Part shown: positions 6,120-64,000 of the stretch, in pieces
How positions within the stretch are numbered: the stretch's first letter is position 1
Layout: every line of letters starts with the position of its first letter
Assembly (NCBI GenBank): GCA_963714975.1
Contig: CAVQQD010000002.1
Span: 416,001 to 480,000, forward strand
Direction of reading: 5' to 3'
From: an uncultured Gammaproteobacteria bacterium
GTDB lineage: Bacteria > Pseudomonadota > Gammaproteobacteria > JAURND01
DNA length: 64,000 bases
Translations under genes and position numbers: made by a program
Notes under the pieces: generated by a model
What the model was told of the DNA's origin: nothing
Databases searched by the model: none
The model's input: only the letters and a program-made list of their open reading frames with translations

Positions 6120-6199
6120 TCTCAAGAAGAAAATGGTGAATATATTTGTTCATATTTTTAATAGCAATTACTTAATTACAATAATTAATTGAGAGAGTA

Positions 6200-6808
6200 A
6201 TGCCTAAGCCAGGTTTTTTTAACTTTAAAGAAGCTGCGGATAAAGCTGCCCATGTTTTGCTACCGCAACTTTATAATACTTCTCAGGCCTTTACTGCGAG
6301 TAATCCTGATGTAAAAAAGGATGCAGCAATAAGGGCTGCTGCAGCTTGGCTTGGAACAGCAGGGGTGATTGTTTTCATTATAAGCCAACATCATCCTGAG
6401 CTGGATATTCACGGCGCTAAAGAATCCATTGCTTCTCTCTTAAACAAAACAACATTAAATCTTGATGCGCAAAATTTTCTGCAGGTTATTACTTACATTG
6501 CGCTGCTTTGGGTCATACCAAAAACTTTTGAATGCATTGCATACATTAGACGGCAGCATCCAAGTTCCAAGAAGATGGAGATTAACTTAGATGATGATGA
6601 ACCAGAGTTGCCCTCCCAAAGTAATGATGATCTACCTCCCGATTCAATTTTCAATCCTAATAGGTTGGACCAAGATTATTTTAAAGCTCATCAAGTTGAT
6701 GCCTATACAGATTGGGATAACCGGACAACTGCATTTGCCCGCGCTTCAAAAATAAGAGATGAGATGAGTAAAAATCGGCATGACAAACATAAATGTATTA
6801 TTTTGTAA
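6200..6808 (+). CDS. Hypothetical membrane protein with C-terminal CaaX motif (CIIL); candidate effector
   Basis: Two hydrophobic segments, acidic/Pro-rich linker, ends KNRHDKHKCIIL. Confidence 0.72.
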   Translation: MPKPGFFNFKEAADKAAHVLLPQLYNTSQAFTASNPDVKKDAAIRAAAAWLGTAGVIVFIISQHHPELDIHGAKESIASLLNKTTLNLDAQNFLQVITYIALLWVIPKTFECIAYIRRQHPSSKKMEINLDDDEPELPSQSNDDLPPDSIFNPNRLDQDYFKAHQVDAYTDWDNRTTAFARASKIRDEMSKNRHDKHKCIIL

Positions 6809-6997
6809 CTATTTAGCAGATACCTCTGTAGCCTATTAGGAGCATTTGGTTGTGGGCTTCCATTAATTTTTGGTTTAATTGTCGACGGATAATGCCAAGA
6901 GTGGCGAGTGTTTATGTTCGAGGAATTTTTTTGCTCTAATGACACAATAAATTCTTTGCTTTAACAATTATACTGTAGTTAAAACTGAAAAAATTTG

Positions 6998-7027
6998 TTG
7001 ACAGCTTCTTCATTCATGCTCTACATT
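6998..7027 (+). promoter_or_regulatory. Putative sigma70 promoter for the gene starting at 7156
   Basis: TTGACA-N18-TACATT in AT-rich intergenic DNA; GAGG RBS before ATG 7156. Confidence 0.4.
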
Positions 7028-14500: not shown

Positions 14501-16575
14501 AATAATTTTTATTTAAAACTGCGGCGTCAACAGCTGAATGATCCGCAGCAATTAATTATACTCCATGCCATGATCGGAGCTGGTTGGCGGAAACTTGATT
14601 TGAGTGTATTTAATCCTAAATTAATTACCGACGAAAAGGTAATGGCATTACTGAGAGGGACACAGACAGCATTACCTGTCATACCTTTGCTTGAGCTTAA
14701 TCTGAATGGTTGTTATCGCTTATCGGAAAATATTTTAGATATAATTCACCGTTACAGCTATGAAACCCTTGAGCGCTTATACTGTAATCGCCTACTGTGG
14801 CAAAACATTGTTTTGGAAAATTGGGATCGATTGCTTTATTTTAAAGGTATAGGCACTAAAGTTTCGCAGTTCGTCATGAATAGGGTGCCTAAATTAGAGA
14901 AATTAAACTTATCTAAAACAACAACTCTGGTAACGCTCAGTGGGACTGCGCCAGAATTAGCTTATGTAAACGTGGATGGCTGCCACCAGTTACGGCATAT
15001 TGGTAAGCCAGGAGTAATTACGGGTCAGCCCTTGAATGCCCCGCAGTTAAAAGTGTTAAATATCGCCAAGTGTGTCAATTTAGAATATCTGTGTTTACCC
15101 AAAACACTTTTTTATGAAGTTATTATTTCACAACTACCCGAGTATCCTAAATTACAGGCGATCGAGTTACAAATCGATCAAGATTTTATTTCTATACCGA
15201 GCTATGCTATCCTCCCTCTGATTGCGCAAAACAGGACTTTAGATTGTGACGGCGCAGGATTGTCCTCGTCACAAATTACTAAGTTAACTGCTTATTTGGC
15301 GCATGATCAATTTTTCAACCATGTAGACTTGAGCAATAATCGTTTCATTTGGGATTTGCCTGGATGGGAACAGGAAGCATTGCTTGCTTTAGGCAAGGCA
15401 TTGGCGAGTAATAAAACCATTACGCATCTTAATATAAGTCGCCATGCGGTGAATATAGGGGATAGATGGCATGGTATGGAGGAAATACCACTACGTACTT
15501 GCCAATTGTTTTGCGATATGGTTGAACATAGCTCACTGATTAGTCTGGACATGTGGGGGGTTTGGGTGCATCCCTATGCAATTAAAAGGATCAGTGCAGC
15601 TGCCCGAGCGAATCCAACATTCCAAGAACTGAGGCATCATTATATCCACCATGTGGTCTCGGTATGGAATAAAAAGGGGGAAAAAAAACAATGGGTAAAA
15701 AAAGATGACTGTATCCAAAAGATACCGCAGTTAACTGAGGCTAAAACTCCTATAACCGGTAAACTCGAAAATTTCTCCTCTGCAATGCCTGGTGAAGCAG
15801 AGCCTTTGCAACAGGTCTCAAGTAGTAATTCCCTATTTGAAAGTCCAGTGGTATTTTTTTCTACTCCTGATTCAAAGCAGACTAGCGCAATGGGTGTAAA
15901 CAAAACAGTCACACCCACCTTTATCCGATGCCAAAACCAATTAATCAAAGAATGTGAACAAGGTAATTTGGCTGGTGTCATGAAATGGATTGCTAAAGGT
16001 GCCCAAGTGAATGAATCGAATGCGGAGGGAAAAAAACCTTTATATTCAGCCGTATATGGCCTGAATTTTCGGATAGTACAATATTTAATACAACAGCATA
16101 AAAAAGGGGTGGAATCTATTAGTTGGAAAGGTTGTGAGGAGCACAATATAAAACATTATGGCAAAACATTTCTTATGGAAAAGCGTATTGTCGAGACTAA
16201 TGAGGATTGGTGTCATTTAATGGAAACGACTCAAGAGAGTGAATTTTTGGATGGGTACCTGTTAAGTAAATATCCAAACACACATAAGTGGCAGTTCGCG
16301 AGGTTCGAAGTTGCTTGTTACCAACATGAAAAGGCGGATAGTGGGGTTGCAAAGCCTCTTTCTCAAGACATGATGGTGTGGTGGATAACAACAGCTGAGG
16401 GGTTGGAAGTACTGAAAGAGCAAATTATATCTGAATTGCAGCAACAGGAGTGCTCCAGCCAGAGTAAAAGCACCATGACATCTACATCCTAGCTTTGAAA
16501 ATCCCAAGGCTTTTAATAATTTTTTAAGCATTTTCCCGTGGTGTTTTGCGATTTTTTAAAGGGTTGCATTATATA

Positions 16576-20581: not shown

Positions 20582-23500
20582 ATGTCCCTTTCACTAGAGG
20601 AAAAAGAGAAAAAAATCGAACATTTAAAAGAGATTCCAGATGACCTCACAACTACGTTTCATTTTTATCAACTTGCCGCGGAAGCAGGCAATACATTAGC
20701 GCATTATTATTTAGGACGTTGTTATCAAACCGGTCGTGGTGTGACTGTGAGTCTACCCGATGCAAGGCGTTGTTTTAAAATAGTAGTGGATCATTATCCT
20801 GAAAATCATCCTCAAGCACAGGCTGCTGCTCAGCGGTTGCAGTCTATACCCTCTACCATTCCAACGTCTGTAGTTATTCCTACCATCGAGATTGCTGAAT
20901 TTGAAGAATCAGAAGAGAAAAAGTTAGGGGATGGTGGACAAGGTAAAGTATATCAGAATAAGTGGCGGGATGAAGTCGTAGCCGTTAAATATTTTTCAGC
21001 ACATATTACCGAAGTGCAAAAACAGGTCCAACGTTTAGCAGAGGCTAAAACCAATCAATCGGATTATTTGATGCAGGTGAAAGCGCTGTGCTTAAAACCT
21101 CCCTGTGTGGTGTTGGAATATATATCAGAAAGCAATTTAAGTCAGTTTTTGGGAGCACGTCCTAATATTATTTGGTTGCATCGCTATCGCTTAGCACATG
21201 ATATTATCCAAGGAGTTGCTTATTTGCATAAACAAGGTTTACTCCACCGTGACCTAAAAAGTATAAATATCATGGTAATAGAAAGACCCCGTTTGCATAC
21301 GAAGTTATGCGATTTTGATTCGCTAAAAAAAAATCAAGTGGGTGAAACTGGCTCGACTGGCGTCATGACGACACCCTATTATTTAGATCCAAGATATTCG
21401 GAGGGATTTTCAGAATCCTATAAGAGTTACGCTTGGTATAACGAAATCTATAATTTGGGTTGCGTATTGTTGGAAATTACTACATGTAAAGATCTACCGT
21501 CAGTGCACATCCACGGAAATGATTTTTACATTCGAAAAGAGCAAAAAGATATACCATTAAGAGATAGCATTCCTACTAATTGTCCTGCTAATTTTGCACA
21601 ATTAATACGCGATTGTTTGCAGTATGATGCTACTTTGCAACCTCGTGCAGAGGTCCTAGCTCAACGAATGACGGCTCTGTTAGAAGCTGAACAATGCAAA
21701 CTTGCCAATACACCCGATGGAAAAGGTCACACTCCATTAATGCGAGCCATTTATCACAGAAAAATAGGAAAAGTAGCGACATTATTAGCCTGTAAAGCAG
21801 ATGTGAATCACATTGATTCTCATGGCTGGACCCCCTTGTTTTGGGCAGTACAAGGTGGCAAGCAAGCCACCCGCATGACGCGATTACTGCTGAAAGCTAA
21901 AGCAGATCCTACTATAGTGGGTCCAAAACAAACAGTATCGGTTCTACAACTGATATTACAAAATTCACTAATATTACAAAATGAATTAATTTCGGCTTGT
22001 GAAAATGGCAGTTTAACAAAAGTTAAAGCTGCCATAGCTAAAGGAGCATTAGTAAATTTACCTAATATGCAGGGCAAAAATCCTCTGTGTTGTGCCGTAT
22101 ATGGTATGAACCCTGGGGTAGTGAACTTTGTTATTACGCAACGAAGTGAAAGTGTCCCTGCTAATTTTTGGCAAGCTTGTGAAGAACATAATAAGAAACA
22201 CTACGGGCAAACTTTTTTAAGCATGGAATTTGCTCCTGTCTATTACAAAGATTGGTATGATTTACTAGAGAAAATTGAATCCAATGAGTTTTTGGTAAGA
22301 TATCACCTCGCGCAGGTGCATAAATACGAGAAGAATAGATGTTGGTGGGATAAAGATTTGATTGAATTAAAGAGGGTGGTGGCGATGGGTATAAGCGAAG
22401 CGCTGTCGTTGGGGTGGCGTTGGGTTGGAGTTGGAAGAAGCGTAGCTGAGACAGAAGTAGGGTATGCAGATTACCGGAATCAAATTAAGCAGGCAATAGA
22501 GACTGTGCCGCTACAAAATGAATTAATCAAGGGTTGTGAAAATGGAAGCTTAACTCAAGTTAAAGTGGCCATAGGCAAAGGCGCATCAGTAGATCTGCCT
22601 AATTGGCAAGGAAAAAATCCGCTGTATTGCGCCGTATATGGCATGAATCCTGATGTGGTGAGCTATATCATTGCACAATACGGTGAAAATTCTCTCATCC
22701 CCTCTTGGGAATCCTGTGAAGATCACAACAAAAAATATTACGGACAAATATTTTTAAATATGAAATTTGCTTCTGTCTATTACCGTGATTGGTATAACTT
22801 ACTTGTTCAGATTGAACACAATGAATTTTTAGCTGGATATCACCTCACGCAGGTTCATAAGTATTATGGGAAGGATGGTTGGTGTAAGAATTTTGGAAGT
22901 CTGAAGGAGTACGTAAAGTTACGGTTTGATGGGGCGGAGCGTGGCGGGTCTCAATCAACGGATGGAACTGAGCATGAGTATGCCGGTTGTCGGAATCAAA
23001 TTAAGCAGACAATGGAGCTGTCGCTACAAAATGAATTAATCACAGCCTGTGAAAATGGCAGCTTATCTAAAGTTAAAGCTGCCATAACCAAAGGTGCATT
23101 AGTGAATTTACCCAATGCACAAAACAAAAAGCCGTTGTATTGTGCCGTGTACGGCATGAATCCTGAGGTAGTGAACTATATCATTGCACAGCGTAGCAAA
23201 AAAGCATCCACTACCAGCAGTTGGGAAGCCTGTGAAGAACACAACAAAAAACACTACGGACAAACTTTTTTAAACATGAAATTTGCACCGAAAACATATA
23301 GTGAATGGTATACGTTATTAACTCAAATTGAGTCTAATGAATTTTTGGAGGGACATCATCTCGCGCAGGTTCAGGGGTATTACGAGAAGACTGAATGGTG
23401 TGTTAATTTACAGTCCTTGCTGGAGTGGGTGTCAAGTAGAGCTGCGCGTACCCATTACCTACTAATTTACTACGATCGACGAAGCGTTTTTCCCGAGACG

Positions 23501-24280
23501 GAGGCGGAGTATGATGGTTGTAGGAATCAAATTATTCGAGCGATGGAGGAGGCTGAGGTGGTACCTAATCAGGAGACCACCCTCTCTCTTTATGCCAGCC
23601 AACCGACATTCTTTGGCGGAGCCAGTAGCTTTAGTATCACTTCGAGTGATGCCAAAACAACAGCAGCTCCCCTGGATGAAAAAACACGCCAACAATTACA
23701 AAATGAATTAATTCAGGCTTGTGAAAATGGTAGTTTGGTGAAAGTTAAGGCCGCCATAGTTAAAGGGGCCTTAGTGGATTTACCCAACGCACAAGGCAAA
23801 AATCCGCTGTATTGTGCCGTGTATGGTATGAATCCTGAAGTGGTGAACTATGTCATTGCGCAGCGAGATGAAAATGCCCCTGCCAGCTCTTGGCAAGCTT
23901 GTGAAGAACATAACAAGAAACACTACCAGGGACAAACTTTTTTAAACATAAAATTTGCACCTGATTATTACAAAGATTGGTATCGTTTACTAGTTGAGAT
24001 CGAACCTAATGAATTTTTAGCGGGGTATCATCTTGCGCGGGTTCATAAGTATCATGGTAAGGCTAAGTGGTGCGAAAATTTTGAGGCGTTAAAAAAAGAA
24101 ACAGGTGAGTGCGGGGCGTATGGGCTGGGGCCTGGTGACAAGGTGGCGGGAGTGCGATTCATGGTGGAGACTGATCAGGGGTTTGACAGTTATAGGCATC
24201 AAATCAAGCTGGTGATTGAGGGATTACAGGCGGTGCAAACCAATCAGTCGATGACTCTGAATGGGGGTGGTACGAATTAA
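20582..24280 (+). CDS. Sel1 repeat + eukaryotic-like protein kinase + ankyrin repeats + four ~170-aa ankyrin-containing modules; candidate effector
   Basis: AGGAGG RBS; Sel1 AAEAGNTLAHYYLGRCYQTGRGV; kinase LGDGGQGKVY, VAVK, HRDLKSINI, DFD; ankyrins GHTPLMRA and GWTPLFWA; modules begin at 21974, 22511, 23024, 23696. Confidence 0.9.
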   Translation: MSLSLEEKEKKIEHLKEIPDDLTTTFHFYQLAAEAGNTLAHYYLGRCYQTGRGVTVSLPDARRCFKIVVDHYPENHPQAQAAAQRLQSIPSTIPTSVVIPTIEIAEFEESEEKKLGDGGQGKVYQNKWRDEVVAVKYFSAHITEVQKQVQRLAEAKTNQSDYLMQVKALCLKPPCVVLEYISESNLSQFLGARPNIIWLHRYRLAHDIIQGVAYLHKQGLLHRDLKSINIMVIERPRLHTKLCDFDSLKKNQVGETGSTGVMTTPYYLDPRYSEGFSESYKSYAWYNEIYNLGCVLLEITTCKDLPSVHIHGNDFYIRKEQKDIPLRDSIPTNCPANFAQLIRDCLQYDATLQPRAEVLAQRMTALLEAEQCKLANTPDGKGHTPLMRAIYHRKIGKVATLLACKADVNHIDSHGWTPLFWAVQGGKQATRMTRLLLKAKADPTIVGPKQTVSVLQLILQNSLILQNELISACENGSLTKVKAAIAKGALVNLPNMQGKNPLCCAVYGMNPGVVNFVITQRSESVPANFWQACEEHNKKHYGQTFLSMEFAPVYYKDWYDLLEKIESNEFLVRYHLAQVHKYEKNRCWWDKDLIELKRVVAMGISEALSLGWRWVGVGRSVAETEVGYADYRNQIKQAIETVPLQNELIKGCENGSLTQVKVAIGKGASVDLPNWQGKNPLYCAVYGMNPDVVSYIIAQYGENSLIPSWESCEDHNKKYYGQIFLNMKFASVYYRDWYNLLVQIEHNEFLAGYHLTQVHKYYGKDGWCKNFGSLKEYVKLRFDGAERGGSQSTDGTEHEYAGCRNQIKQTMELSLQNELITACENGSLSKVKAAITKGALVNLPNAQNKKPLYCAVYGMNPEVVNYIIAQRSKKASTTSSWEACEEHNKKHYGQTFLNMKFAPKTYSEWYTLLTQIESNEFLEGHHLAQVQGYYEKTEWCVNLQSLLEWVSSRAARTHYLLIYYDRRSVFPETEAEYDGCRNQIIRAMEEAEVVPNQETTLSLYASQPTFFGGASSFSITSSDAKTTAAPLDEKTRQQLQNELIQACENGSLVKVKAAIVKGALVDLPNAQGKNPLYCAVYGMNPEVVNYVIAQRDENAPASSWQACEEHNKKHYQGQTFLNIKFAPDYYKDWYRLLVEIEPNEFLAGYHLARVHKYHGKAKWCENFEALKKETGECGAYGLGPGDKVAGVRFMVETDQGFDSYRHQIKLVIEGLQAVQTNQSMTLNGGGTN

Positions 24281-42005: not shown

Positions 42006-43555
42006 CAATGGCACTACCTTAAGCCACAGAATATTTTAAAATCCTTTTATTTATTTTACGTAGCAATTTTTCTTTTTCGATTGCTCTGTTTCTCTTCAAG
42101 GCTGGAAATGGTTTCGGTCTTTGCTTGACTAGCCTGGGCTCCACCCTATCTGGTCTATTTCCAACTTTGTTTTGCACAATTAATTTTAACATCTCAATAT
42201 ACATTTTATGGTTGCTCACCTGATTTGAGCTTATAAAATAAGGAATAAATTCATTTAGTAGCTGCACACTTCCCTTAAAGCTTATTTCCCATGGATTAAC
42301 GCCATACTCATAACAAGCTTTTGCTATAATTATTCTGATAAAATTATATGCTAATAAATGAATTCCTATTTCTTTTCTAACCATTTCTGGTGTTTTGCAC
42401 GATAACATATCCATATTCATGATACTTTTAATACTTCGCAAATTAAGCTCCACCTCCCACCTTCGCTTATATATTTGGGCAAGCTCTGCTTTGTGGTATT
42501 TTTTGTCTAAAAATGTTGTAACGTATATGTGGCCTGATACTTTAAATTCCCGTATGGAAATTTGATCGGGGTATGCCTCATATTGCTTTTGTGTCATCCA
42601 TTCCGGTTTCTGTGGTTTCTCCCAGTTGACAATGTGATCATTTTTACCCAATTTTTGTCCCATTCTAAAATCATAATTCCTTTGACTTTGTCCGCGAAAA
42701 ACACCATCAGCTCCTATTTTTTTTAAGTCCGCCATAAGAAAAAAATTGGGGTAATAACGGTCACCCAGCACAATATCGTCGGCTTTAATGCAGTTTATAA
42801 TTTCTCTTAATAATGAGATTTCTCCTGTGCCCTTTCCTTTGTGAGCCCCTATTGCATAATCTATTACGGTTCCCCGCGTCAGTGACATAACGGCTACTAT
42901 TCGCGCCATAGGAAATCCAGCCCCTTTTTTCTGATTACCATGCTGAGGAAATTTTTTTTGATTAGCTTTTGTATCCGACATTTTGACGGTAAATCCATCA
43001 AATGCTTTTAATTCTCGGCCATAGACTTTCCATCTCATTGGAATAGATTTCAAAGGGAAAGCTCCAGATTCTTTAACTAATGCCTTCACAGTATCTTCAG
43101 GCAATCGCTTTCTGGCCTTACAATAGGGGCCAGTATTTGAGCTTATTTTATTCTGCTTCTTTTTTTTACTATGCAGCTGCTCCACAACAACACCAGCAAC
43201 CGCTTTTTTGCAGGATTTATCTGGATTTAAAACTTGTTTAATAAACGTAAATAAGGTTTTGGTGGGGCTATATATCCGGTCACGATATTCCCGGCACTCT
43301 CTAAGTATCTTCTGACATTTTTCTGAATTCAATAGGTTTAACAGGAAAATGTCTGGTGCACCATCAGCCAATTCTTGTCTTTTATTTTTAACTTGCTTAA
43401 TTTTATTTTTCTTTTTAAAATTCACAGATCAGTTTCCTTTTTTTATTATTGTGTGTTTGCTACAACAATAATATTAAATTTGGAAACTGATTTCATCTTT
43501 TTTCATCTAAATCATAGGCTTATATTCATCTTTGCTCCTTAAGGTAGTGCCATTG
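42006..43555 (-). mobile_element. IS4-family insertion sequence, copy 2 (1550 bp)
   Basis: Same IRs as copy 1; 11-bp target duplication GACCTGGCAAT (41995-42005 / 43556-43566). Confidence 0.96.
42019..43425 (-). CDS. IS4-family DDE transposase
   Basis: Identical to 4566-5972 except FDGS to FDGF. Confidence 0.93.
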   Translation of the reverse strand: MNFKKKNKIKQVKNKRQELADGAPDIFLLNLLNSEKCQKILRECREYRDRIYSPTKTLFTFIKQVLNPDKSCKKAVAGVVVEQLHSKKKKQNKISSNTGPYCKARKRLPEDTVKALVKESGAFPLKSIPMRWKVYGRELKAFDGFTVKMSDTKANQKKFPQHGNQKKGAGFPMARIVAVMSLTRGTVIDYAIGAHKGKGTGEISLLREIINCIKADDIVLGDRYYPNFFLMADLKKIGADGVFRGQSQRNYDFRMGQKLGKNDHIVNWEKPQKPEWMTQKQYEAYPDQISIREFKVSGHIYVTTFLDKKYHKAELAQIYKRRWEVELNLRSIKSIMNMDMLSCKTPEMVRKEIGIHLLAYNFIRIIIAKACYEYGVNPWEISFKGSVQLLNEFIPYFISSNQVSNHKMYIEMLKLIVQNKVGNRPDRVEPRLVKQRPKPFPALKRNRAIEKEKLLRKINKRILKYSVA

Positions 43556-55109: not shown

Positions 55110-56027
55110 ATGGAATTTTTTAGAGCGAACACCCAGATTAATTTTATGGCCCAACGCAAATGGGCGGCGTTATTTTCTATTGTGTTATTTGTCGCTTCAA
55201 TTGTTTCACTCATTGTCCACGGTTTGCATTTTGGTTTAGATTTCACTGGGGGCACCCAAATAGAATTAAGTTATCAACAACCTGTTGATTTAAATACCCT
55301 GCGTGAGAAGTTGAATCAGGCCGGTTTTTCTTCAGCGGTGGTGCAATCTTATGGCACGTCAAAAAATGTGCTCATTCGCATTCCTCCACTAAAAGAAGTT
55401 TCTGAAAGTGCATTAAAAGAGCGAATATTACAGGCATTACCTGGTTCCCAATTTCAACAAATAGAATATATTGGTGCGCAAGTAGGTAGAAGTTTAGTGA
55501 CGAATGGCTTATTGGCTGTGTTGGTTTCATTATTAGCAACGATTGCTTATATTGCTTTTCGTTTTGAACTGCGTTTTGCGGTGAGTGCCGCTGTGGCGCT
55601 TATACATGATCCAATTTTAATTCTCGGTGTTTTTTCGTTTTTCAATCTGCAGTTTGATTTAATTTCTTTAGCCGCTCTTTTAACCTGCATTGGTTATTCC
55701 TTGAATGATACGATTGTGGTATATGATCGGGTTCGGGAAAATTTTCGTAAAATTCGCAAGGGAAGTGCAATTGAGGTAATGAATCAATCAATTAATCAGA
55801 CCTTATCACGAACGATCATGACCTCTGGCTTAACTTTGTTAGTAGTGGTTGCCTTATTAATTTTTGGCGGAGAGATGTTGCGGGGGTTTTCAATTGCTTT
55901 AATCGTCGGTATTGGCGTAGGTACTTATTCTTCCATTTATGTAGCAGGATCTTTGGCAATCGCTTTGGGCTTGGATCGCACCCATTTATTGCCGGCGGCC
56001 AAAAAAGAAGAGGATGGGCTACCCTAG
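55110..56027 (+). CDS. secF: Protein translocase subunit SecF
   Basis: GLDFTGG, GYSLNDTIVVYDRVREN, GTYSSIYVA. Confidence 0.98.
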   Translation: MEFFRANTQINFMAQRKWAALFSIVLFVASIVSLIVHGLHFGLDFTGGTQIELSYQQPVDLNTLREKLNQAGFSSAVVQSYGTSKNVLIRIPPLKEVSESALKERILQALPGSQFQQIEYIGAQVGRSLVTNGLLAVLVSLLATIAYIAFRFELRFAVSAAVALIHDPILILGVFSFFNLQFDLISLAALLTCIGYSLNDTIVVYDRVRENFRKIRKGSAIEVMNQSINQTLSRTIMTSGLTLLVVVALLIFGGEMLRGFSIALIVGIGVGTYSSIYVAGSLAIALGLDRTHLLPAAKKEEDGLP

Positions 56028-56036
56028 TAATATATT

Positions 56037-56090
56037 CCTTCTCCCCTTGTGGGAGAAGGTGCCGAAGGCGGATGAGGGGAACCTCCCTCA
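56037..56090. repeat. Family-D palindromic repeat
   Basis: CCTTCTCCCCTTGTGGGAGAAGGTGCCGAAGGCGGATGAGGGG directly after secF. Confidence 0.82.
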
Positions 56091-56193
56091 GAAACTGCTG
56101 GATATTCAGCAGCATTTCGCCTAAGATTTGTCGACCCCGGCATGTGCCGGATGTGCAGTACCTTTGAAAACCTTTTCAAAAGGAAGATGGACC

Positions 56194-56799: not shown

Positions 56800-57366
56800 A
56801 TGCCACCCAAGCGAGATAATCTAATTTGGATTGATTTAGAAATGACCGGGCTTAGCCCCGATCGGGATCGTATCCTTGAAATTGCGACGGTAGTAACAAA
56901 TTCTGATCTCACTGTAGTGGCTGAAGGCCCGGTGATGGCTATCCATCAGCCAGATAGTATCTTAGAAATGATGGATGAATGGAATATCAATCAGCATACT
57001 AAGTCGGGGTTAGTGGTTCGCGTGCAAGCAAGTTTGATCACTGAAGAGCAAGCCCAAGCAGAAACTATTGAATTCCTGATGCAGCACGTTCCCCCAGGAA
57101 GATCCCCGATGTGTGGAAATAGTATTTGCCAGGATCGCCGATTTTTATATCGTTGGATGGGGAAACTCGAGCAATATTTCCATTATCGGAACTTGGATGT
57201 CAGCTCTATAAAAATCTTAGCCCAGCATTGGGCCCCGCAAATATTGCAAGGGGTGAAAAAGGACGTAAAACACCTAGCTCTTGATGATGTCTACCAATCA
57301 ATTGCCGAATTAAGGCATTACCGCCAGAATTTCTTCTTGTTGCCCCCCTTGGAAAAAGAGGGTTAG
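56800..57366 (+). CDS. orn: Oligoribonuclease
   Basis: [40 protein letters not shown]. Confidence 0.97.
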
Positions 57367-57369
57367 GGA

Positions 57370-57446
57370 TTCGTCGTCCCTGCAGGATGCCGGGATCCAT
57401 GCCGGGACGACGAGCCCCCTCTCTCCCCTTTTTAAAGGGGGAATTT
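57370..57446. repeat. Short family-A palindrome fused to a family-C hairpin, after orn
   Basis: TTCGTCGTCCCTGCAGGATGCCGGGATCCATGCCGGGACGACGAG followed by CCCCTTTTTAAAGGGG. Confidence 0.75.
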
Positions 57447-57621
57447 CCGCAAAATATTCTAACTTATTGATTCTTAAAGACCATTTATTTTTTATCAAAT
57501 AAAAGTGAAATCTCACTGCCATATACTATAATCTTCCAACGAGGGATGTAAAAAGGATAAAAAATCAGGTATGGAGTGGGAATCCTCAGTCCTAATTAAC
57601 AAAACGTGGAGATTAAAAATT

Positions 57622-57840
57622 ATGTTTACCTATTTAGCTGATGTAGAACTTGACACAATTGTTGGTGGTGGCGGATATGGTGGTGGCCATAAAATGCAAC
57701 AGCCAGCATTGCAAATTACTACATTGAATGTATCTAGTGAATCGAAATCATTCTCTTATTCACAAAGCAGCTCAAGCTTACAGTTCTTTAACTTACAAGT
57801 TGGTAAGACGAATGCAAGTCCTGTTAGTATAACCCTGTAG
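57622..57840 (+). CDS. Double-glycine-leader peptide precursor 1 (72 aa; Ser/Gln-rich core)
   Basis: GGAG RBS; MFTYLADVELDTIVGG|GGYGGGHKMQQPALQITTLNVSSESKSFSYSQSSSSLQFFNLQVGKTNASPVSITL; upstream of a C39 ABC transporter. Confidence 0.88.
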   Translation: MFTYLADVELDTIVGGGGYGGGHKMQQPALQITTLNVSSESKSFSYSQSSSSLQFFNLQVGKTNASPVSITL

Positions 57841-57948
57841 TGATAAATGATTAAACTCCCCCTTAATCCCCCATCCTCTGCGTTGGATGGGGTGGTTAAT
57901 GAGGGGTTCCAAGAAGGTCATATGAACAAAAATTTGGGGGGGTCTTAT

Positions 57949-58194
57949 ATGATAAATACCGTACTTACTGATCATTGTTTAGATACACTGAATGTAGTAG
58001 GAGGAAGAGGGTTTGGATATCACCCGCAACATACTGGCTCACAGAGCTCTGGGCAAACGCCGGTGCAGATAACACACTTACAAATAACCAGTTTCAGCGT
58101 ATCGTTTTCTTTTTCTGTAGCTTTTTCAAGCTTGCAATTTACCAATATTCAAATAGGAAATACAGGTCCCAGTCCAGTGACTATTGCGATTTAG
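57949..58194 (+). CDS. Double-glycine-leader peptide precursor 2 (81 aa; Ser/Phe-alternating core)
   Basis: MINTVLTDHCLDTLNVVGG|RGFGYHPQHTGSQSSGQTPVQITHLQITSFSVSFSFSVAFSSLQFTNIQIGNTGPSPVTIAI; aligns without gaps to the C-terminal core of precursors 1 and 3. Alternative start at 57922. Confidence 0.8.
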   Translation: MINTVLTDHCLDTLNVVGGRGFGYHPQHTGSQSSGQTPVQITHLQITSFSVSFSFSVAFSSLQFTNIQIGNTGPSPVTIAI

Positions 58195-58314
58195 GTTACG
58201 AAGGCTGATGCCTGGAGTGTGGTAAGGAAGTTTTTTATGGACTCGTGAAGGATCAAATAGGATACGTAGGAATGCTGAGTCCAAAAATGTAGTTAAAATG
58301 TGGAGATTAAAAAT

Positions 58315-58527
58315 ATGTTTACTTATTTAGCTGATGTAGAACTTGACACAATTGTTGGTGGATGGGGAAATCACACACCAAAACAACAACAAGCGTTGCA
58401 GATTACTACACTGAATGTATCTAGTGAATCGAAATCATTCTCTTATTCACAAAGCAGCTCAAGCTTGTCGTTCTTTAACTTACAAATTGGTAAGACGAAT
58501 CCAAGCCCAGTTTCTATAAGCTTATAG
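58315..58527 (+). CDS. Double-glycine-leader peptide precursor 3 (70 aa; paralogue of 1)
   Basis: MFTYLADVELDTIVGG|WGNHTPKQQQALQITTLNVSSESKSFSYSQSSSSLSFFNLQIGKTNPSPVSISL. Confidence 0.88.
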   Translation: MFTYLADVELDTIVGGWGNHTPKQQQALQITTLNVSSESKSFSYSQSSSSLSFFNLQIGKTNPSPVSISL

Positions 58528-58641
58528 TATTTGGAAATTAACCCCCCCCAATCCCTCTACCCCTTTTCCAAAGGGGGTAGAGAGATTTAAAGGGGAAATA
58601 AATTGAAGCGAATTGTAGTGTCATTAATTGGAGAGACAATC

Positions 58642-58809
58642 ATGATTAAATATTTAAAAGATGTAAAAATGGAAAAATTAGCCGGGGGAGGTGGGTGTAG
58701 GCCAAATCCATGCCGTCCACGTCCACCTATCTGCAAGCCGCCCGTAGTGTGCCAGCCTGTAGCATGTCACCCGGTGTCATGCCATCCCCGTCCTCGCTGC
58801 GGTTATTAA
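58642..58809 (+). CDS. Double-glycine-leader peptide precursor 4 (55 aa; Cys/Pro-rich core)
   Basis: GGAG RBS; MIKYLKDVKMEKLAGG|GGCRPNPCRPRPPICKPPVVCQPVACHPVSCHPRPRCGY. Confidence 0.82.
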   Translation: MIKYLKDVKMEKLAGGGGCRPNPCRPRPPICKPPVVCQPVACHPVSCHPRPRCGY

Positions 58810-58821
58810 GGTTGTGAAATT

Positions 58822-58914
58822 CCTTCTTCCGCTTGCGGGAGAGGGTGCCGAAGGCGGGTGAGGGTGTTTGAAATGGCTTCAAGCCACGAAGAACATCCTC
58901 ACCCGCCTTCGGCA
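58822..58914. repeat. Family-D palindromic repeat
   Basis: GTGCCGAAGGCGGGTGAGGGTGTT...AACATCCTCACCCGCCTTCGGCA between the precursors and the transporter genes. Confidence 0.82.
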
Positions 58915-59010
58915 TTTTTCTTCTGAAAAAGTGGTTGATTTATATGAAAGACCCACCTATCATGTGATAGATTTGGAAATTAAACCACACCTACGGGAAA
59001 GGAGTTCTCA

Positions 59011-60276
59011 GTGCAAGACAAACCATTATTCCGTGAAGCTGCTTTAAAGCATTTCTCTTCTCCAGAACAGCTAGATCAACTGATTCAAGTAGTTACTCCT
59101 AGGGCTTGGATTGTGGCAGGGACCCTCTACGCTCTTTTATTCATCATCATTCTCTGGTCCATTATTGGCACCATCCCAACCCGCGGTGAAGGGAAGGGAA
59201 TTTTATTGGCTGGCAATGGTGACATTTATGGCGCTGTGGTTCCCCAGGGACCTAGCCGCGTGAGTAATGTTCTGGTAAAACCTGGGGACAAAGTAGTTAA
59301 AGGCCAAATAGTGGCTACTATGTCTCGACCTGATTTAACCGATCAAATCAAAGTCAGCCAAAATTACGTTGCTGAACTACAAAATAAATATAATCAGTTG
59401 CTGACATTGTCGCGTGGTGCTGTTGCCACTCGGGAGCAGCAAGTTGCTATGCAGCAACAAGCACTGCAGCGCTCTTTAACCGATAGTCAGTCAAAACTGG
59501 ATAACATCAGTGAATTATTATCCATTAAGCAAGGAGCATTTAAAAAAGGCATTGAAACCAGACAAAGCGTTGATCAAACGACCCAGGATTATTATAACGC
59601 TAAAAATATCCTCGAAGGATTTAGAAATCAATTAATTCAATTACATGTAGAAGAACGTAGTTTCATTGATCAATGGAATCAAAGATTGCGAGACCTTGAT
59701 TTAAAGATTGTTGATGAAAAAGTTAAGTTGGCCAACTTGCAAAAAGCATTAATTCTTTCCTCCGATGTTGCCAGTCCTGTTGCCGGTATAGTCACTGGCG
59801 TTCAAGCGACTTTAGGGAGCATTCTGAATACGGGTGATTCTGTCGTGAGTGTTGCTAACGAAGGTCAAGGCTTAGATGCTCTGGTTTATCTTCCCCCACA
59901 AATAGGTAAACGCATTAAGCCTGGGATGAAAGCTTTAGTTGCACCGACTACAGTCGAAAAAGCGGAATATGGCAGTATTTTTGGTCATGTAGTGCGGGTG
60001 GCGGCATTTCCATCAAGTCCCCAAGCAATAGAATCAGTTTTGCAAAATCCTGATTTAGTAAAAGCATTTACCAAAGAAGAATCTCCCATTGAGGTGCGTA
60101 TTCATTTAGAAAAAGATCCCGCTACTTATAGTGGATTAAAATGGTCATCTTCCCGAGGGCCTCAACAAAAAATTACGATGGGTACTTTAGCAACTGCCAT
60201 GGTAACGATACGTGAGCAGGCTCCGATCACTTTGGTGATCCCTGCCTTTAGAAAATTTACTGGAATGGAATATTAA
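59011..60276 (+). CDS. NHLP/NHLM bacteriocin-system secretion protein (HlyD-like membrane fusion protein)
   Basis: LFREAALKHFSSPEQLDQLIQVVTPRAW, coiled coil, EYGSIFGHV, SGLKWSSSRGP, EQAPITLVIP. Confidence 0.93.
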   Translation: MQDKPLFREAALKHFSSPEQLDQLIQVVTPRAWIVAGTLYALLFIIILWSIIGTIPTRGEGKGILLAGNGDIYGAVVPQGPSRVSNVLVKPGDKVVKGQIVATMSRPDLTDQIKVSQNYVAELQNKYNQLLTLSRGAVATREQQVAMQQQALQRSLTDSQSKLDNISELLSIKQGAFKKGIETRQSVDQTTQDYYNAKNILEGFRNQLIQLHVEERSFIDQWNQRLRDLDLKIVDEKVKLANLQKALILSSDVASPVAGIVTGVQATLGSILNTGDSVVSVANEGQGLDALVYLPPQIGKRIKPGMKALVAPTTVEKAEYGSIFGHVVRVAAFPSSPQAIESVLQNPDLVKAFTKEESPIEVRIHLEKDPATYSGLKWSSSRGPQQKITMGTLATAMVTIREQAPITLVIPAFRKFTGMEY

Positions 60277-60339
60277 AATCCCCCCTACACGTCGTCCCGC
60301 GGCTTGTGCGCGGGATGACGTAAGTAGGGGGGGATTTTA
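60274..60339. repeat. Nested palindrome between transporter genes
   Basis: TAAAATCCCCCCTAC-ACGTCGTCCCGCG..CGCGGGATGACGT-AAGTAGGGGGGGATTTTA. Confidence 0.8.
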
Positions 60340-60344
60340 GAGGG

Positions 60345-62576
60345 ATGGAATGTATGGAAAAGTGGTATCGAAGTTTAAAAGCTAAATGGTTGGCTTTAAT
60401 CACGCGTTTTAATAACCAGAAAACGTATGTAAAAACTCCTACCATTTTGCAAATGGAAGCAGCAGAATGTGGTGCTGCAGCACTGGGTATTATACTAGCG
60501 TTTTATGGACGTTATGTCCCTTTAGAAGAATTACGTACTGCTTGTGGTGTGTCACGTGATGGCAGTAAAGCGACGAATATGCTCAAAGCAGCGCGCCGTT
60601 ACGGGTTAAATGCTCAAGGAGCTAAAGTTGAGCCTGAATCTTTTGCCGAACTAAAATTACCGGTTATCGTGTTTTGGGAATTTAATCATTTTGTCGTAGT
60701 GGAAGGTTTTGATCGCCAATGGATTTATCTGAACGATCCTGCTACTGGCCCTCGGACTGTCACCCATGCTGATTTTAATGAATCGTTTACTGGGATTGTC
60801 TTATTATTCGAGCCTTCTGAGCAATTTGAACCCGGTGGGCAGAAATCTAATTTTGTGGAGAGTTTGGTACAACGCCTTAAAGGATTAAAGCATGATTTAG
60901 CTTTTGTCGTGCTAGCCAGTTTAGTCGCTGTGGCGCCTAGCATTGCTATTCCAGGACTTACCAAAATCTTTATTGACCAAATACTCATTCAACATCTGTC
61001 TGGATGGTTGCTGCCGTTGTTATGGGGTCTGCTTATTACTGGGGTTTTTCGTGCACTGGTTTCCTATTTGGAACAAATGTATTTGCTCCGGTTGCAATTA
61101 AAAATGCTGTTGACTTCTTCTGCTCGGTTTATTTGGCATGTGTTGCGGTTACCTTTTGGATTTTTTAGTCAACGTTTTGCTGGAGATATTCAATCGCGTG
61201 TTGAGTCTAATGATCGGCTCTCAGAATGGTTATCTGGGGAATTATCCGCAAGCATGGTCAGCATGTTTAGCATGGTCCTATTTGCGGTGGTGATGTTCCT
61301 TTTTGACTGGGTACTCACGCTAGTTGCCATCGTAATTGCTTCAACCAATGCTTGGTTATTTCTCACTATTTCTCGTGGTATCGAGAACGCAAGTCGGCGC
61401 TTACAACAGGAATTCGGTAAATTAAATGGAATTGAGATGAATGGCTTACAAGCGATTGAAACCATCAAAGCTAGTGGCATAGAAGATGATTTCTTTGAGC
61501 GCTGGTCAGGTTATCATGCTAAGACATTAAATAGCCAACAAAAAATTCACTTATATAGTCGTATCCTGCTCGTCATTCCGCAATTACTCAATGGCTTCAT
61601 GGCTATTATAATCTTGGGTTTAGGTGGCTGGCGGATTATTCAAGGGCATCTCAGTATTGGCGGACTAGTGGCTTTCCAAAGTTTATTGGCTAGTTTCAAT
61701 GCGCCGCTAATGACTTTGATTGGCGCTGGCAATAAATTGCAACAAATTAAAGCTGATATAGCTCGTTTGGATGATGTCCAAAAACATCCAGAAGATTCAC
61801 GTCTTACGATTGAAGAAGCACAAGCTCATCAAGAGCCTTTAAAGGGGCAATTAGAACTTAGCAATATTAATTTCGGTTATTCTCCCTTGGACCCTCCTTT
61901 TATCGAAAACATCAATTTGAATTTGCAGCCTGGAAAGCGCATTGCTATCGTGGGAGCCTCTGGCAGCGGAAAATCTACTTTAGCGAAACTTATTTGTGGC
62001 TTGTATTCTCCTTGGTCCGGTGAAATTTCCTGGGATAATGTTCCGATGACAGCTATTTCTGCGGCAACACTGAGCCGATCTTTGGCATTTGTCGATCAGG
62101 AGGTTTTTTTATTTGAGGGCACCATTCAACAAAATCTTACTTTGTGGAAAAAAGGAGTTTCTTTTAGCATTCTGGAAAGTGCGGTTCATGATAGCTTATT
62201 AGAATCAGTGGTGCTAAATCGCCCGAAAGGGTTGTTCAGCGAAGTCATTACTGCGGGTGCTAATTTTAGTGGTGGACAGCGCCAACAATTGGAAATTGCT
62301 CGAGCTTTAGTGCAAGAACCCGCCATTTTAGTTTTGGATGAAGCCACTTCAGCTCTAGATGCTACTACCGAGCAAGGCATTATGGATAATCTAAAGAAAC
62401 GTAATTGTAGTATGCTGTTAATTGCTCATCGCTTAAGTACCATTCGTGATTGTGATGAAATTATTGTGCTAGAGCAAGGAAGAGTCATTGAACGCGGTAC
62501 CCATGACCAGTTGTTTGGTTTACAGAGTGCCTATCATCATTTAGTCCAAACCGAAGGTGAGATAATTCATGCCTAA
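60345..62576 (+). CDS. NHLP/NHLM-type peptidase-containing ABC transporter (C39 peptidase + TMD + NBD)
   Basis: KTPTILQMEAAECGAAAL, CGVSRDGS, WEFNHFVVVEG, NDPA; Walker A GASGSGKST; FSGGQRQ; VLDEATSALD. Confidence 0.95.
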   Translation: MECMEKWYRSLKAKWLALITRFNNQKTYVKTPTILQMEAAECGAAALGIILAFYGRYVPLEELRTACGVSRDGSKATNMLKAARRYGLNAQGAKVEPESFAELKLPVIVFWEFNHFVVVEGFDRQWIYLNDPATGPRTVTHADFNESFTGIVLLFEPSEQFEPGGQKSNFVESLVQRLKGLKHDLAFVVLASLVAVAPSIAIPGLTKIFIDQILIQHLSGWLLPLLWGLLITGVFRALVSYLEQMYLLRLQLKMLLTSSARFIWHVLRLPFGFFSQRFAGDIQSRVESNDRLSEWLSGELSASMVSMFSMVLFAVVMFLFDWVLTLVAIVIASTNAWLFLTISRGIENASRRLQQEFGKLNGIEMNGLQAIETIKASGIEDDFFERWSGYHAKTLNSQQKIHLYSRILLVIPQLLNGFMAIIILGLGGWRIIQGHLSIGGLVAFQSLLASFNAPLMTLIGAGNKLQQIKADIARLDDVQKHPEDSRLTIEEAQAHQEPLKGQLELSNINFGYSPLDPPFIENINLNLQPGKRIAIVGASGSGKSTLAKLICGLYSPWSGEISWDNVPMTAISAATLSRSLAFVDQEVFLFEGTIQQNLTLWKKGVSFSILESAVHDSLLESVVLNRPKGLFSEVITAGANFSGGQRQQLEIARALVQEPAILVLDEATSALDATTEQGIMDNLKKRNCSMLLIAHRLSTIRDCDEIIVLEQGRVIERGTHDQLFGLQSAYHHLVQTEGEIIHA

Positions 62577-64000
62577 GAGAAATGAAGACTCCATTGTCAA
62601 CGAAGCCGTGATGCATTTGGCTTCTGTGTTTAGCGAAGAAAATTTTAATGAACCTAGCAGTGAGCAAACAGATGCGCTGTGGATTGCGTGCGAATATATT
62701 TGTCGTGATCTAGCGATGGCTATTCAAAAACCTGCGCGAATTCCTGAACAAGCAAATTATCATAGTTTATTGATGGAAATTGCTCGCGCTTCTTCCTTTC
62801 GAGTTCGCCGCGTAGCGCTAAAAGGGCAGTGGTGGCGTTTTGATAATGGTCCCTTGTTAGTATTTGATGCCAATACTCAATCTCCCCAGGCATTGGTTTT
62901 AGATAAAAAAGGCCAGTACCAATTAATTGATCCGATCACTGGTGACAGACGTTTGGTGGATGAAAAAGTAGCACATGAATTAGCTGGCTTGGGTTATACC
63001 TTTTATAAAAGTTTGGCGAATGCCAAGTTAACCTGGTGGGGATTGCTACGTTTTGCATTCCAAGGACGGACTCGTGATGTTTGGCGAACTTTAGCTTTGC
63101 AAGCGGGTGTGGGTTTGTTCGCACTTTTTATTCCGATTGCGACGGGCATTATTTTAGACATAGCCGTACCCAATGCTAACCTTTCTATCTTAGGTCAATG
63201 GGTAATAGGATTACTGGTTTTCACCCTCGTGGCAGCAATTTTTAATGCCAGCCAAGTTTTGTCATTATTGCGTCTGCGTTTTAAGATGAATGCTTATACC
63301 CAAGGGGCTATTTGGGATCGTTTGTTGCGATTACCGGTAGGTTTTTTTCGTACCTTTACCCCAGGGGATCTTGCTGTAAGAGCCTCGGGTGTTGATACCA
63401 TTCAACAAGATTTGACTGATGCTGCGCTGCAAACCTTACTAAGCGGCGTGTTTTCTATCTTCACTTTTGGGCTGATGATTTATTATTCGTCTTCTTTAGC
63501 GTTGGTTGCATTGGTGTTGTTAGCTTTGTTTGTCGCTGCAATCATTCTGGAAGCTCAAATTGAATTAAAATTTCAGCGTCCGGTAGCAAAATTGGGTGGG
63601 ATGTTAGCTGATTTGATGCTGCAATTTCTCACGAATATCAGTAAATTGCGGGTTTGTCATAGTGAAACCCGGGCCTTTGCAATTTGGGCAAAACAGTTCT
63701 CCAGGAAAAATCGGCTTTTTCTCGGTGCCTCATTGTGGGCCATTCGTTTTTCCATTTTTCGGACCTTGCTGGCAACCTTAGGCATAATTGGCTTATACGG
63801 TTTGGTGGGCAGTAAATTCTCATCTTTGAGTTTTGGTAGTTTTATTGCATTTAATGCGGCTTTTGGGCAATTTTTTGTGTCTGTATTAGGATTGGCGGGA
63901 GTGTTTGCAACGATTATCCGTATCATTCCGCTCTATGAACGTATTCAACCTATTCTGCATGCGCAACCCGAGCGTGATATGGAGGGCATTGATCCAGGAA
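62569..64000 (+). CDS. Second NHLP/NHLM-type ABC transporter subunit, 3'-truncated by window edge
   Basis: Absent from the ORF track (no stop inside the window). ATG overlaps the previous gene: MPKRNEDS...IARASSFRVRRVALKGQWWRFDNGPLL...AIWDRLLRLPVGFFRTFTPGDLAVR...IIPLYERIQPIL. Confidence 0.92.
   Translation, partial: MPKRNEDSIVNEAVMHLASVFSEENFNEPSSEQTDALWIACEYICRDLAMAIQKPARIPEQANYHSLLMEIARASSFRVRRVALKGQWWRFDNGPLLVFDANTQSPQALVLDKKGQYQLIDPITGDRRLVDEKVAHELAGLGYTFYKSLANAKLTWWGLLRFAFQGRTRDVWRTLALQAGVGLFALFIPIATGIILDIAVPNANLSILGQWVIGLLVFTLVAAIFNASQVLSLLRLRFKMNAYTQGAIWDRLLRLPVGFFRTFTPGDLAVRASGVDTIQQDLTDAALQTLLSGVFSIFTFGLMIYYSSSLALVALVLLALFVAAIILEAQIELKFQRPVAKLGGMLADLMLQFLTNISKLRVCHSETRAFAIWAKQFSRKNRLFLGASLWAIRFSIFRTLLATLGIIGLYGLVGSKFSSLSFGSFIAFNAAFGQFFVSVLGLAGVFATIIRIIPLYERIQPILHAQPERDMEGIDPG

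Follow-up and report, generated by a model that had tools for sequence, protein, structure and literature searches.

Class II microcins such as MccV, MccE492, and MccAB1 are described as unmodified peptides of less than 10 kDa, rich in residues of the Gly/Ser/Ala type, some of which form amyloid. They are made with a double-glycine (GG) leader of 15–19 residues and exported by an adjacent ATP-binding cassette (ABC) transporter with a C39 peptidase domain and an adaptor, with TolC encoded elsewhere. Here, we analyze a locus of related design in an uncultured gammaproteobacterium (GTDB lineage JAURND01; assembly GCA_963714975.1, 2.56 Mb in three contigs). The DNA under study, hereafter the window, is a stretch of 64,000 nucleotides (contig CAVQQD010000002.1, here C2, positions 416001–480000). 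Near its end, four small open reading frames (ORFs), termed pepA to pepD, lie directly 5′ of three genes for an export machine of the nitrile hydratase leader peptide (NHLP) type. This cassette is best read as a Legionellales-lineage version of the double-glycine peptide systems served by peptidase-containing ABC transporters (PCATs), to which class II microcins and cyanobacterial tandem bacteriocins (CTBs) belong. That it makes, cuts, and exports small unmodified microcin-like peptides is a reading whose chances we put at about even.

The likeness to class II microcins extends to the leaders of pepA, pepB, pepC, and pepD, which comprise 16, 19, 16, and 16 residues and all end in GG, one of the three endings (GG, GA, or GS) of such leaders, and to the combination of an adjacent C39 ABC transporter, a membrane-fusion protein, and a TolC encoded elsewhere in the genome. 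In contrast, the pump contains two NHLP-type ABC subunits, whereas microcins use a single PCAT, and we recognized no immunity gene by eye. The comparison is one of description, and the cores have no sequence similarity to any family searched.

The same trio of transporter families (TIGR03794, TIGR03796, and TIGR03797) was first described with ribosomally synthesized and post-translationally modified peptide (RiPP) systems of the NHLP and Nif11 types (Haft, 2010). Unlike those, the peptides here carry leaders of 16–19 residues without NHLP or Nif11 homology, and no cyclodehydratase, LanM, or radical-SAM enzyme adjoins them. An initial annotation of this DNA had stated that the trio normally accompanies long leaders and modifying enzymes, which is accurate for its discovery. 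As a rule it does not hold: among the 37 precursors reported for “group V” clusters, which are defined by the same three-gene cassette, 11 are of NHLP type, 10 of Nif11 type, and 16 are other (Wang et al, 2011). These other precursors, together with the CTB loci and the Legionella cassettes described below, show that the earlier statement cannot be generalized.

In layout, a close parallel is the operon of Synechococcus elongatus EbfG1–4, four small GG-motif proteins that are secreted with the help of a C39 ABC transporter (PteB) and without a modifying enzyme. EbfG1–4 are reported to be co-transcribed, and the C39 cysteine of PteB to be needed for efficient secretion and biofilm formation; EbfG1–3, but not EbfG4, are described as amyloid-prone by Congo red, AmyTracker, and electron microscopy, and the authors draw an analogy to CsgA/CsgB. 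The present system differs in its three-gene NHLP-type pump and its Dot/Icm-bearing gammaproteobacterial host, in which transporter dependence would be expected by analogy. Similarly, the Acinetobacter baumannii class II microcin MccAB1 is reported to form thioflavin-positive amyloid and to drive biofilm formation, in a report that cites MccE492 as an earlier amyloid-forming microcin. Given these precedents, a leader-cleaved, ABC-exported amyloid, one of the ideas of the initial annotation, is an already published concept. Curli (CsgA/CsgB) share with the peptides a Ser-, Gln-, and Asn-rich strand–turn–strand repeat of about 23 residues, as well as the joint encoding of several related subunits. 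However, the peptides have no Curlin_rpt match and only two repeat units, and their export would be of the type I-like ABC kind with leader cleavage, while curli use Sec and CsgG.

Four precursor genes with short double-glycine leaders

The gene order secD, secF, plsY, orn is followed by the four small ORFs and the three transporter genes, all in the same orientation (Table 1, with the start codons judged most plausible), so that the arrangement given in the initial annotation was found in full. pepA and pepC share the leader MFTYLADVELDTIVGG. The pepB leader, MINTVLTDHCLDTLNVVGG, carries a two-residue insertion before VGG and would be extended to 28 residues if translation began at the alternative ATG at 57922. 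pepD starts with MIKYLKDVKMEKLAGG, which is 53% identical to the leader of pepA and pepC over 19 residues. In pepA, pepC, and pepD, hydrophobic residues occupy positions −4, −7, −12, and −15, the usual pattern of double-glycine leaders.

All four ORFs are real genes, as indicated by Shine–Dalgarno sites, by the codon pattern of pepA and pepC, and by identical contigs in two RNA libraries. A GGAG or a run of G lies 8–10 nt 5′ of every ATG (for pepD, GGAG at 8 nt). pepA, pepB, and pepC are paralogues, with 80% identity between pepA and pepC and 46–49% between pepB and either of them; no further copy was found in the genome by tblastn. The 71 aligned codons of pepA and pepC comprise 48 identical, 12 synonymous-only, and 11 non-synonymous pairs. 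Seven of the 11 non-synonymous changes fall into the linker directly after GG. Within the β-core (codons 29–72), eight synonymous changes stand against four non-synonymous ones, an excess that fits real coding genes under purifying selection.

In two soil RNA libraries from separate studies, contigs match the peptide genes closely. Library X2 holds a 225-nt contig identical to the window over 57606–57830 (pepA), and library X3 holds contigs over 58016–58166 (one differing letter) and 58177–58327 (none). A further run, X1, which is probably DNA although its type is uncertain, yields a contig over 57906–58175, a part of pepB; the pepB contigs of X1 and X3 are 99–100% identical. The lack of contig cover in X1–X3 over the remainder of 57500–59100 (pepD, most of pepC, and the start of the adaptor gene) carries no information. 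Since RNA libraries can hold DNA, these contigs hint at expression but are no proof of transcription.

An NHLP-type export machine with one predicted active and one predicted degenerate C39-like domain

All three export proteins named in the initial annotation score above the NCBI equivalog cut-offs for NHLP export (Table 1). ABC2 runs past the window end and was therefore scored as the full protein of 718 residues taken from the genome. Among solved structures, the double-glycine protease LahT150 (6mpz; E = 2.4e-45) comes nearest to the C39 domain of ABC1, and ComA structures are also among the PDB matches. The ECG, NHF, and NDP motifs of this domain, which would supply the catalytic Cys, His, and Asp, align with those of 6mpz. 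Thus, the predicted leader-cleaved export by the trio, as proposed in the initial annotation, is well supported. TolC (TIGR01844) is encoded elsewhere in the genome (287.8 bits, cut-off 225.15; contig C2, 334912–336171).

ABC2-type subunits are as a rule described as having no peptidase domain (Haft, 2010), and the first 174 residues of ABC2 have no sequence match. An AlphaFold2 model of the N-terminal 170 residues, built on seven orthologues, reached a mean predicted local distance difference test score (pLDDT) of 76.8 and a predicted template modeling score (pTM) of 0.71. In the PDB, this model is matched best by the C39-like domain of HlyB, which is catalytically dead (3zua; E = 4.7e-5, TM-scores 0.51/0.61); the matches that follow include the peptidase domain of ComA and the HlyB/D complex, with PCAT1 and LahT further down, and two unrelated papain-like proteins are among the top five. 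None of the Cys or His residues in this domain is invariant among the seven orthologues. In the model, the ABC2 N-terminus thus has a fold like that of a catalytically dead C39-like domain. Owing to this fold, the pump probably pairs one subunit that cuts (ABC1) with one that holds the substrate (ABC2).

No tailoring enzyme is encoded between orn and a point about 11 kb past ABC2, which bears out the earlier statement for the interval up to the window end. Reading beyond position 64000, as had been proposed, revealed a convergent gene for a BrkB/YihY membrane protein, a phosphoribosyltransferase gene, and then a lipid-type cluster, without any peptide-tailoring enzyme.

Table 1. Features of the peptide cassette and of the remaining window (positions counted from the first letter of the window)
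Feature	Position	Strand	Description
Promoter candidate	57505–57532	+	Sigma-70-like, GTGAAA-16-TATAAT, ~90 nt 5′ of pepA; 10/12 consensus positions
pepA	57622–57840	+	72-aa precursor: 16-aa GG leader and 56-aa Ser/Gln/Gly-rich core without Cys
Hairpin 3′ of pepA	57854–57908	+	Stable; 88-nt stretch 57838–57925: −32.9 kcal/mol, z = −3.2
pepB	57949–58194	+	81-aa precursor: 19-aa leader and 62-aa core with SFSVSFSFSV
pepC	58315–58527	+	70-aa precursor, 80% identity to pepA
Hairpin 3′ of pepC	58550–58587	+	Stable; 86-nt stretch 58525–58610: −30.3 kcal/mol, z = −3.4
pepD	58642–58809	+	55-aa precursor: 16-aa GG leader and 39-aa core with 7 Cys and 12 Pro, net cationic
Double hairpin, then U-run	58822–58918	+	Between pepD and adaptor gene; −71.4 kcal/mol, z = −9.0
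Adaptor	59011–60276	+	HlyD-like membrane-fusion adaptor, NHLP type; TIGR03794 292 bits (cut-off 156.2); HlyD_3
ABC1	60345–62576	+	C39 peptidase, permease, and ATPase (PCAT); TIGR03796 1011 bits (cut-off 853.3); Peptidase_C39 1.2e-36
ABC2	62569–64000 (end at window-equivalent 64725)	+	Second permease/ATPase subunit; TIGR03797 820.4 bits (cut-off 709.4)
Helicase with ankyrin repeats	1640–4252		Eukaryote-like
Ankyrin-repeat protein	11684–16489		1602 aa, eukaryote-like
Ser/Thr kinase with ankyrin repeats	20582–24277		1232 aa, eukaryote-like

The cassette recurs in sister genera and in Legionella

The initial annotation had called the locus a candidate new system. This is not borne out, because the same enzyme-free cassette with GG leaders of 15–16 residues is shared by two sister-genus genomes and by Legionella bononiensis and L. 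quateirensis, and CTBs lie beside the same type of HlyD. The order of the host counts only nine species genomes, four of which contain TIGR03796 above cut-off. In the two sister-genus genomes, ABC1 and ABC2 are followed by six (one genome) or five (the other) peptides with GG or GA leaders and then by HlyD, the whole flanked by rluB and an acyl-CoA dehydrogenase gene. The leaders there, for example MMTYICDVELKTVAGG, are similar to those of pepA–D, whereas the cores differ strongly.

A scan of 185,579 species genomes with the adaptor alignment returned 59 loci. Six of these are 55–62% identical to the host adaptor, namely those of two uncultured relatives, L. bononiensis, L. quateirensis, a Legionella metagenome-assembled genome (MAG), and another gammaproteobacterial MAG; in nearly all others, the best aligned segment has 25–40% identity, and a few matched via shorter fragments only. 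Legionella species are thus the named organisms closest by adaptor sequence. L. bononiensis and L. quateirensis each encode two peptides with the leader MNYLPD[DE]DL[DN]QIVGG, and their three transporter genes come next, arranged as in the host. Short-leader peptides are adjacent in five of eight loci of this clade, counting the host locus and one sister-genus genome. The other three are a contig of 4.2 kb, a contig that ends just after the adaptor gene, and the Legionella MAG. In the latter, the one candidate seen is an ORF of 181 residues just after ABC2 (locus positions 14850–15392). APLILGG occurs inside it near residue 51, and its long tail is rich in His and Gly. This ORF may encode cargo with a longer leader for a pump of this type.

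No tailoring enzyme is present among the 64 neighboring proteins of seven related loci. The housekeeping genes around related cassettes differ from genus to genus, and the gene content 3′ of orn differs in every genome of the family, which indicates that the cassette is self-contained and moves around. Just 5′ of two related cassettes lie genes for a sensor kinase or a response regulator. At the level of the class, the adaptor scored above cut-off in 23 of 400 sampled genomes. Within flanks of 1.5 kb, short-leader peptides were seen only in the host and the two sister-genus genomes, a range that permits no inference on the other 20. Among the papers that literature searches on Legionella listed, none has a title or opening of the abstract that describes a peptide system of this kind.

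A second type of peptide was noticed in the sister-genus genomes, directly 5′ of the adaptor gene (locus positions 14131–14352 and 7013–7285). Its leader starts with MNNR.EFV and has GVG or GAG at its end; the core is β-prone and rich in Thr, Ser, Gly, Asn, and Val. By eye, the motifs QIGN and SITL suggested a relationship to pepB, which we rejected on the basis of Smith–Waterman scores (p = 0.12–0.54, 2000 shuffles) and hhalign (0.65%).

Cyanobacterial tandem bacteriocins as counterparts

Peptides above the cut-off of NF038167 (CTB family bacteriocin; Pfam PF28158 according to Atlas entries) adjoin the same adaptor type in five cyanobacterial loci. CTB loci resemble that of pepA–C: a TIGR03794-type adaptor is adjoined by a tandem group of GG peptides with short leaders, whose cores of 55–70 residues are rich in Gly, Gln, Asn, Ser, and Thr and low in charge. 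Moreover, language-model features place CTB clusters nearest to pepB, although the score of 0.77 serves as a lead only. In contrast, the CTB leaders examined comprise 21–26 residues (24 in most) compared with 16–19 in the host. pepC reaches 14.6 bits with NF038167, mostly via its leader, against a cut-off of 32, and the other peptides do not match. The model finds nothing in the host genome at E ≤ 10, core-only hhalign gives 0.5–1.7%, and the S. elongatus genome, used as a control, has no match either.

Four of the cyanobacterial genomes contain 15–23 CTB matches each, many in tandem arrays. In these arrays, near-identical genes follow one another head to tail about 370 bp apart, mostly far from the NHLP-type adaptor locus.

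To survey GG peptides at the 59 adaptor loci, a single regular expression was applied to the plus strand, which returned 40 ORFs in 25 loci; 36 of the 40 were scanned in NCBIfam. Matches above cut-off were NHLP leaders in three loci, Nif11 in one, and CTB in four plus one more that was scanned with a shorter start; the two ORFs of one locus gave no match above cut-off. At least one of the ORFs is no peptide precursor but lumazine synthase. As the pattern can miss precursors, which the 34 loci without an ORF may hold, these counts are a floor.

The cores are an orphan cargo family

The cores of pepA, pepB, and pepC lack Cys and are rich in Ser, Thr, Gln, and Asn (44–52%), in agreement with the initial annotation, and they contain one to four charged residues. 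The annotated two similar strands exactly 23 residues apart were also recovered: a pattern search places LQITTLNV and LQFFNLQV at core positions 14 and 37 of pepA, and VQITHLQI and LQFTNIQI at 20 and 43 of pepB. The same spacing was counted by hand in pepC (LQITTLNV at 12, LSFFNLQI at 35). Strict β alternation, claimed for the cores in general, is real but statistically modest and significant in pepB only. Here, the longest alternating run spans 10 residues (p = 0.03 in 20,000 composition-preserving shuffles), whereas the runs of 6 in pepA and pepC are not significant (p = 0.46 and 0.40).

An AlphaFold2 monomer of pepC, based on a three-row alignment, suggests strands at residues 43–46, 50–56, and 64–69, but at a mean pLDDT of 57.5 the model is below use for a fold search. 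A complex prediction with four copies of the pepC core scored 0.01 (mark 0.42), which counts neither for nor against self-assembly.

Homology searches, including one with a core profile as had been suggested with the initial annotation, returned no relatives of the A/B/C cores beyond the window. None of the four peptides has a Pfam match at E ≤ 0.1, Curlin_rpt included, and at this threshold neither Pfam nor NCBIfam links them to curlin, Fap, or other amyloid families. A word-indexed search of 5.8 billion clusters returned nothing but the proteins of the window itself, and a HMMER profile against 1.84 billion representatives found these and one more, P0004. The latter, a perfect tandem-repeat protein of 1052 residues matched in 12 repeats, was judged a chance hit. 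Back-translated DNA scans detected no related stretch among 155 from metagenome contigs and 31 from genome contigs, and searches in the nine genomes of the order gave leader-only matches (E = 0.15 and 0.79). Alignment of the cores to the CTB, sister-genus, and Legionella peptides remained at hhalign probabilities of 0.2–1.7%. For pepD, the cluster search gave no candidate, and the best Atlas row (0.76) is an unnamed cluster. Judged by sequence, the A/B/C cores are therefore an orphan cargo family without detectable relatives in the searched sets, and it is the cargo that is new.

Promoter and hairpins

The putative promoter 5′ of pepA is a consensus match only; the region contains nine comparable sites, with 3.5 expected from shuffles. 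A dispersed palindromic repeat, matched 52 times by blastn across the three contigs, has one of its copies 3′ of pepD, and this copy is the double hairpin that precedes the adaptor gene; a role of this hairpin as attenuator is therefore something we infer only. Translated relatives of this repeat appear as small spurious ORFs near 56014–56179.

Genomic setting and distant loci

The genome gives three DotI/IcmL matches above cut-off, compared with none in 14 control genomes, and the window contains the kinase–ankyrin protein, other ankyrin proteins, and several transposases. Four DDE transposase genes are interspersed among the ankyrin genes, two of which encode proteins of 468 residues each with the same Pfam match (4566–5969, plus strand; 42022–43425, minus strand). 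On the basis of the DotI/IcmL matches and the ankyrin and kinase proteins, the lineage is probably host-associated. In this form, the earlier description of a probably intracellular lineage is supported.

A search of the whole genome for tailoring functions, also suggested earlier, gave a mixed outcome. The NHLP leader model TIGR03793 matches neither the four peptides nor the genome. The Nif11 leader model TIGR03798 matches none of the peptides, with a best genomic hit of E = 0.36 inside a frame of 263 residues. No SPASM radical-SAM enzyme was found in the genome; LanC gave no match there, a result without information because no control matched either. TolC was found as described above, as were three YcaO-domain ORFs distant from the cassette. 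One forms a YcaO-TfuA pair of the thioamidation type near transposases (contig C3, 466000–481000; locus positions 5698–8425). The other two are tandem, divergent ORFs of 401 and 418 residues about 238 kb from the cassette (contig C2, 703000–722000; locus positions 8535–11016). The tandem pair is surrounded by shikimate-pathway genes and adjoins the gene for an ankyrin protein resembling the Dot/Icm effector AnkG. No precursor peptide was seen beside either YcaO locus, and nothing was found that links these genes to the cassette.

A second NHLP-like trio lies on the minus strand of contig C3 (727000–745000; locus positions 5713–11787), with ABC1 and ABC2 just below cut-off (842.9 vs. 853.3 bits and 700.2 vs. 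709.4 bits). It is preceded by a cyclic nucleotide-binding protein of 144 residues with a weak TIGR03896 match and lies beside a non-ribosomal peptide synthetase gene of more than 1880 codons; no GG-leader peptide was found next to it.

The lipid-type cluster downstream of the cassette (contig C2, 473000–492000; locus positions 9401–15734) holds a protein of 1059 residues that fuses AMP-binding, carrier, and class I/II aminotransferase domains and resembles a fatty-acyl-AMP ligase joined to an oxoamine synthase. A fatty-acid hydroxylase, an ORF of 375 residues without Pfam match, an NAD-dependent epimerase, and an ORF of 123 residues follow, the last of which, by its look, may be a diacylglycerol kinase. 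The product may be an amino- or sphingo-like lipid.

Discussion

In the model that we favor, the four precursors would probably be transcribed from a promoter 5′ of pepA, and the hairpins after pepA, pepC, and pepD might keep the level of peptide mRNA above that of transporter mRNA. The amphipathic leader would be recognized by the C39 domain of ABC1, which would cut after GG. ABC1, ABC2, the HlyD-like adaptor, and the distant TolC would then, judging from their families, pass the cores out of the cell without tailoring. The predicted cargo comprises the uncharged, β-prone A/B/C cores of 54–62 residues and the Cys/Pro-rich cationic D core of 39 residues. Outside the cell, the peptides would most likely act in competition, as microcins do. 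Because peptides of this kind can also self-assemble, an antibiotic role would be compatible with one in a matrix. The weightiest argument for such a role is that the cargo cannot be aligned although the adaptors of the related loci are 55–65% identical. Bacteriocin systems typically combine a conserved pump with cargo that changes fast. The similarity of the leaders to one another and to those of related loci, the canonical pump, and the small size of the peptides further support this reading. Several observations weigh against it. The cores match no bacteriocin family, with NF038167 as the best model staying well below its cut-off. Three similar peptides and an odd one without an immunity gene parallel the EbfG matrix operon, and the three distant YcaO genes leave room for modification in trans. 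Finally, inspection by eye of ORFs of at least 30 residues in 57366–59011 and just after ABC2, made without a transmembrane predictor, disclosed no immunity-like small membrane protein, and none was seen in the related loci. To our knowledge, however, immunity proteins have no common signature, and an exporter can itself protect the producer of a peptide.

Among the alternatives, a functional amyloid is possible but doubtful. Here, pepA, pepB, and pepC would be leader-cleaved subunits whose strands, spaced by 23 residues, stack into cross-β fibres at or near the cell surface, with pepD as an accessory, for instance a cross-linker or nucleator. The nearly uncharged cores rich in Ser, Thr, Gln, and Asn, their alternating stretches and repeated strands, the strands in the low-confidence monomer model, and the lack of a recognized immunity gene are in line with this idea, as are the close precedents reported for EbfG1–4, three of which are amyloid-prone, and MccAB1. 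Yet alternation exceeds chance in pepB only, no amyloid family matches, and even sister genera with the same pump differ in their cargo, which would be unusual for a structural fibre. A bolder version appears unlikely to us, namely that A/B/C form a matrix or fibre amyloid, which the Dot/Icm-bearing, host-associated bacterium would export with its two-subunit peptidase ABC pump, with pepD as a covalent cross-linker or nucleator, and that the β-prone, low-charge GG peptides beside NHLP-type pumps (A/B/C, the two sister-genus families, and the CTBs) represent one convergent class that self-assembles rather than serving as antibiotics.

The remaining explanations concern the fate or target of the peptides. 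Given the three distant YcaO genes, a RiPP tailored in trans, in which a YcaO protein would modify pepD or the Ser/Thr-rich cores before export, retains a low probability. pepD is rich in Cys, and NHLP-type exporters are reported to work in many cases with precursors and enzymes from distant loci (Haft, 2010; Wang et al, 2011). Nevertheless, nothing ties the YcaO genes to the cassette, the genome lacks NHLP and Nif11 leaders and SPASM radical-SAM enzymes, and all seven related loci are devoid of adjacent enzymes. Leaders of 16 residues are also short for recognition by tailoring enzymes. It is similarly improbable that the peptides are pheromone-like signals or act on a eukaryotic host. Competence and quorum pheromones are among the GG-leader peptides that C39 ABC transporters export, ComA appears in the structural matches of ABC1, and regulatory genes precede two related loci; the Dot/Icm components and eukaryote-like proteins of the lineage would suit a host-directed role. 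However, no sensor or regulator adjoins the host cassette, cores of 54–62 residues are long for pheromones, and nothing points to a host target. Hardly credible, in our view, is that the small ORFs are chance or decaying sequences and the exporter serves other cargo, although they have no homologues outside the host genome and the second NHLP-like trio also lacks visible cargo. Against this stand four co-oriented ORFs directly 5′ of a matching exporter, each with a Shine–Dalgarno site and a canonical GG leader, the purifying selection in the pepA/pepC core, the same layout in related genomes, and the identical RNA-library contigs.

For the family, the analysis corrects a tempting reading of the locus, as an NHLP-type exporter with short leaders and without enzymes is a recurrent, self-contained cassette in Legionella, its uncultured relatives, and cyanobacteria. 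To this it adds an orphan cargo family of an unusual serine-rich, β-prone build. The predicted dead C39-like fold in a subunit regarded as peptidase-less suggests that one subunit of such pumps cuts the leader while the other holds the substrate. Legionellales-type genomes have hardly been explored for secreted peptides. If these peptides self-assemble, the link between microcins, amyloid, and biofilms would extend to an amoeba-associated lineage.

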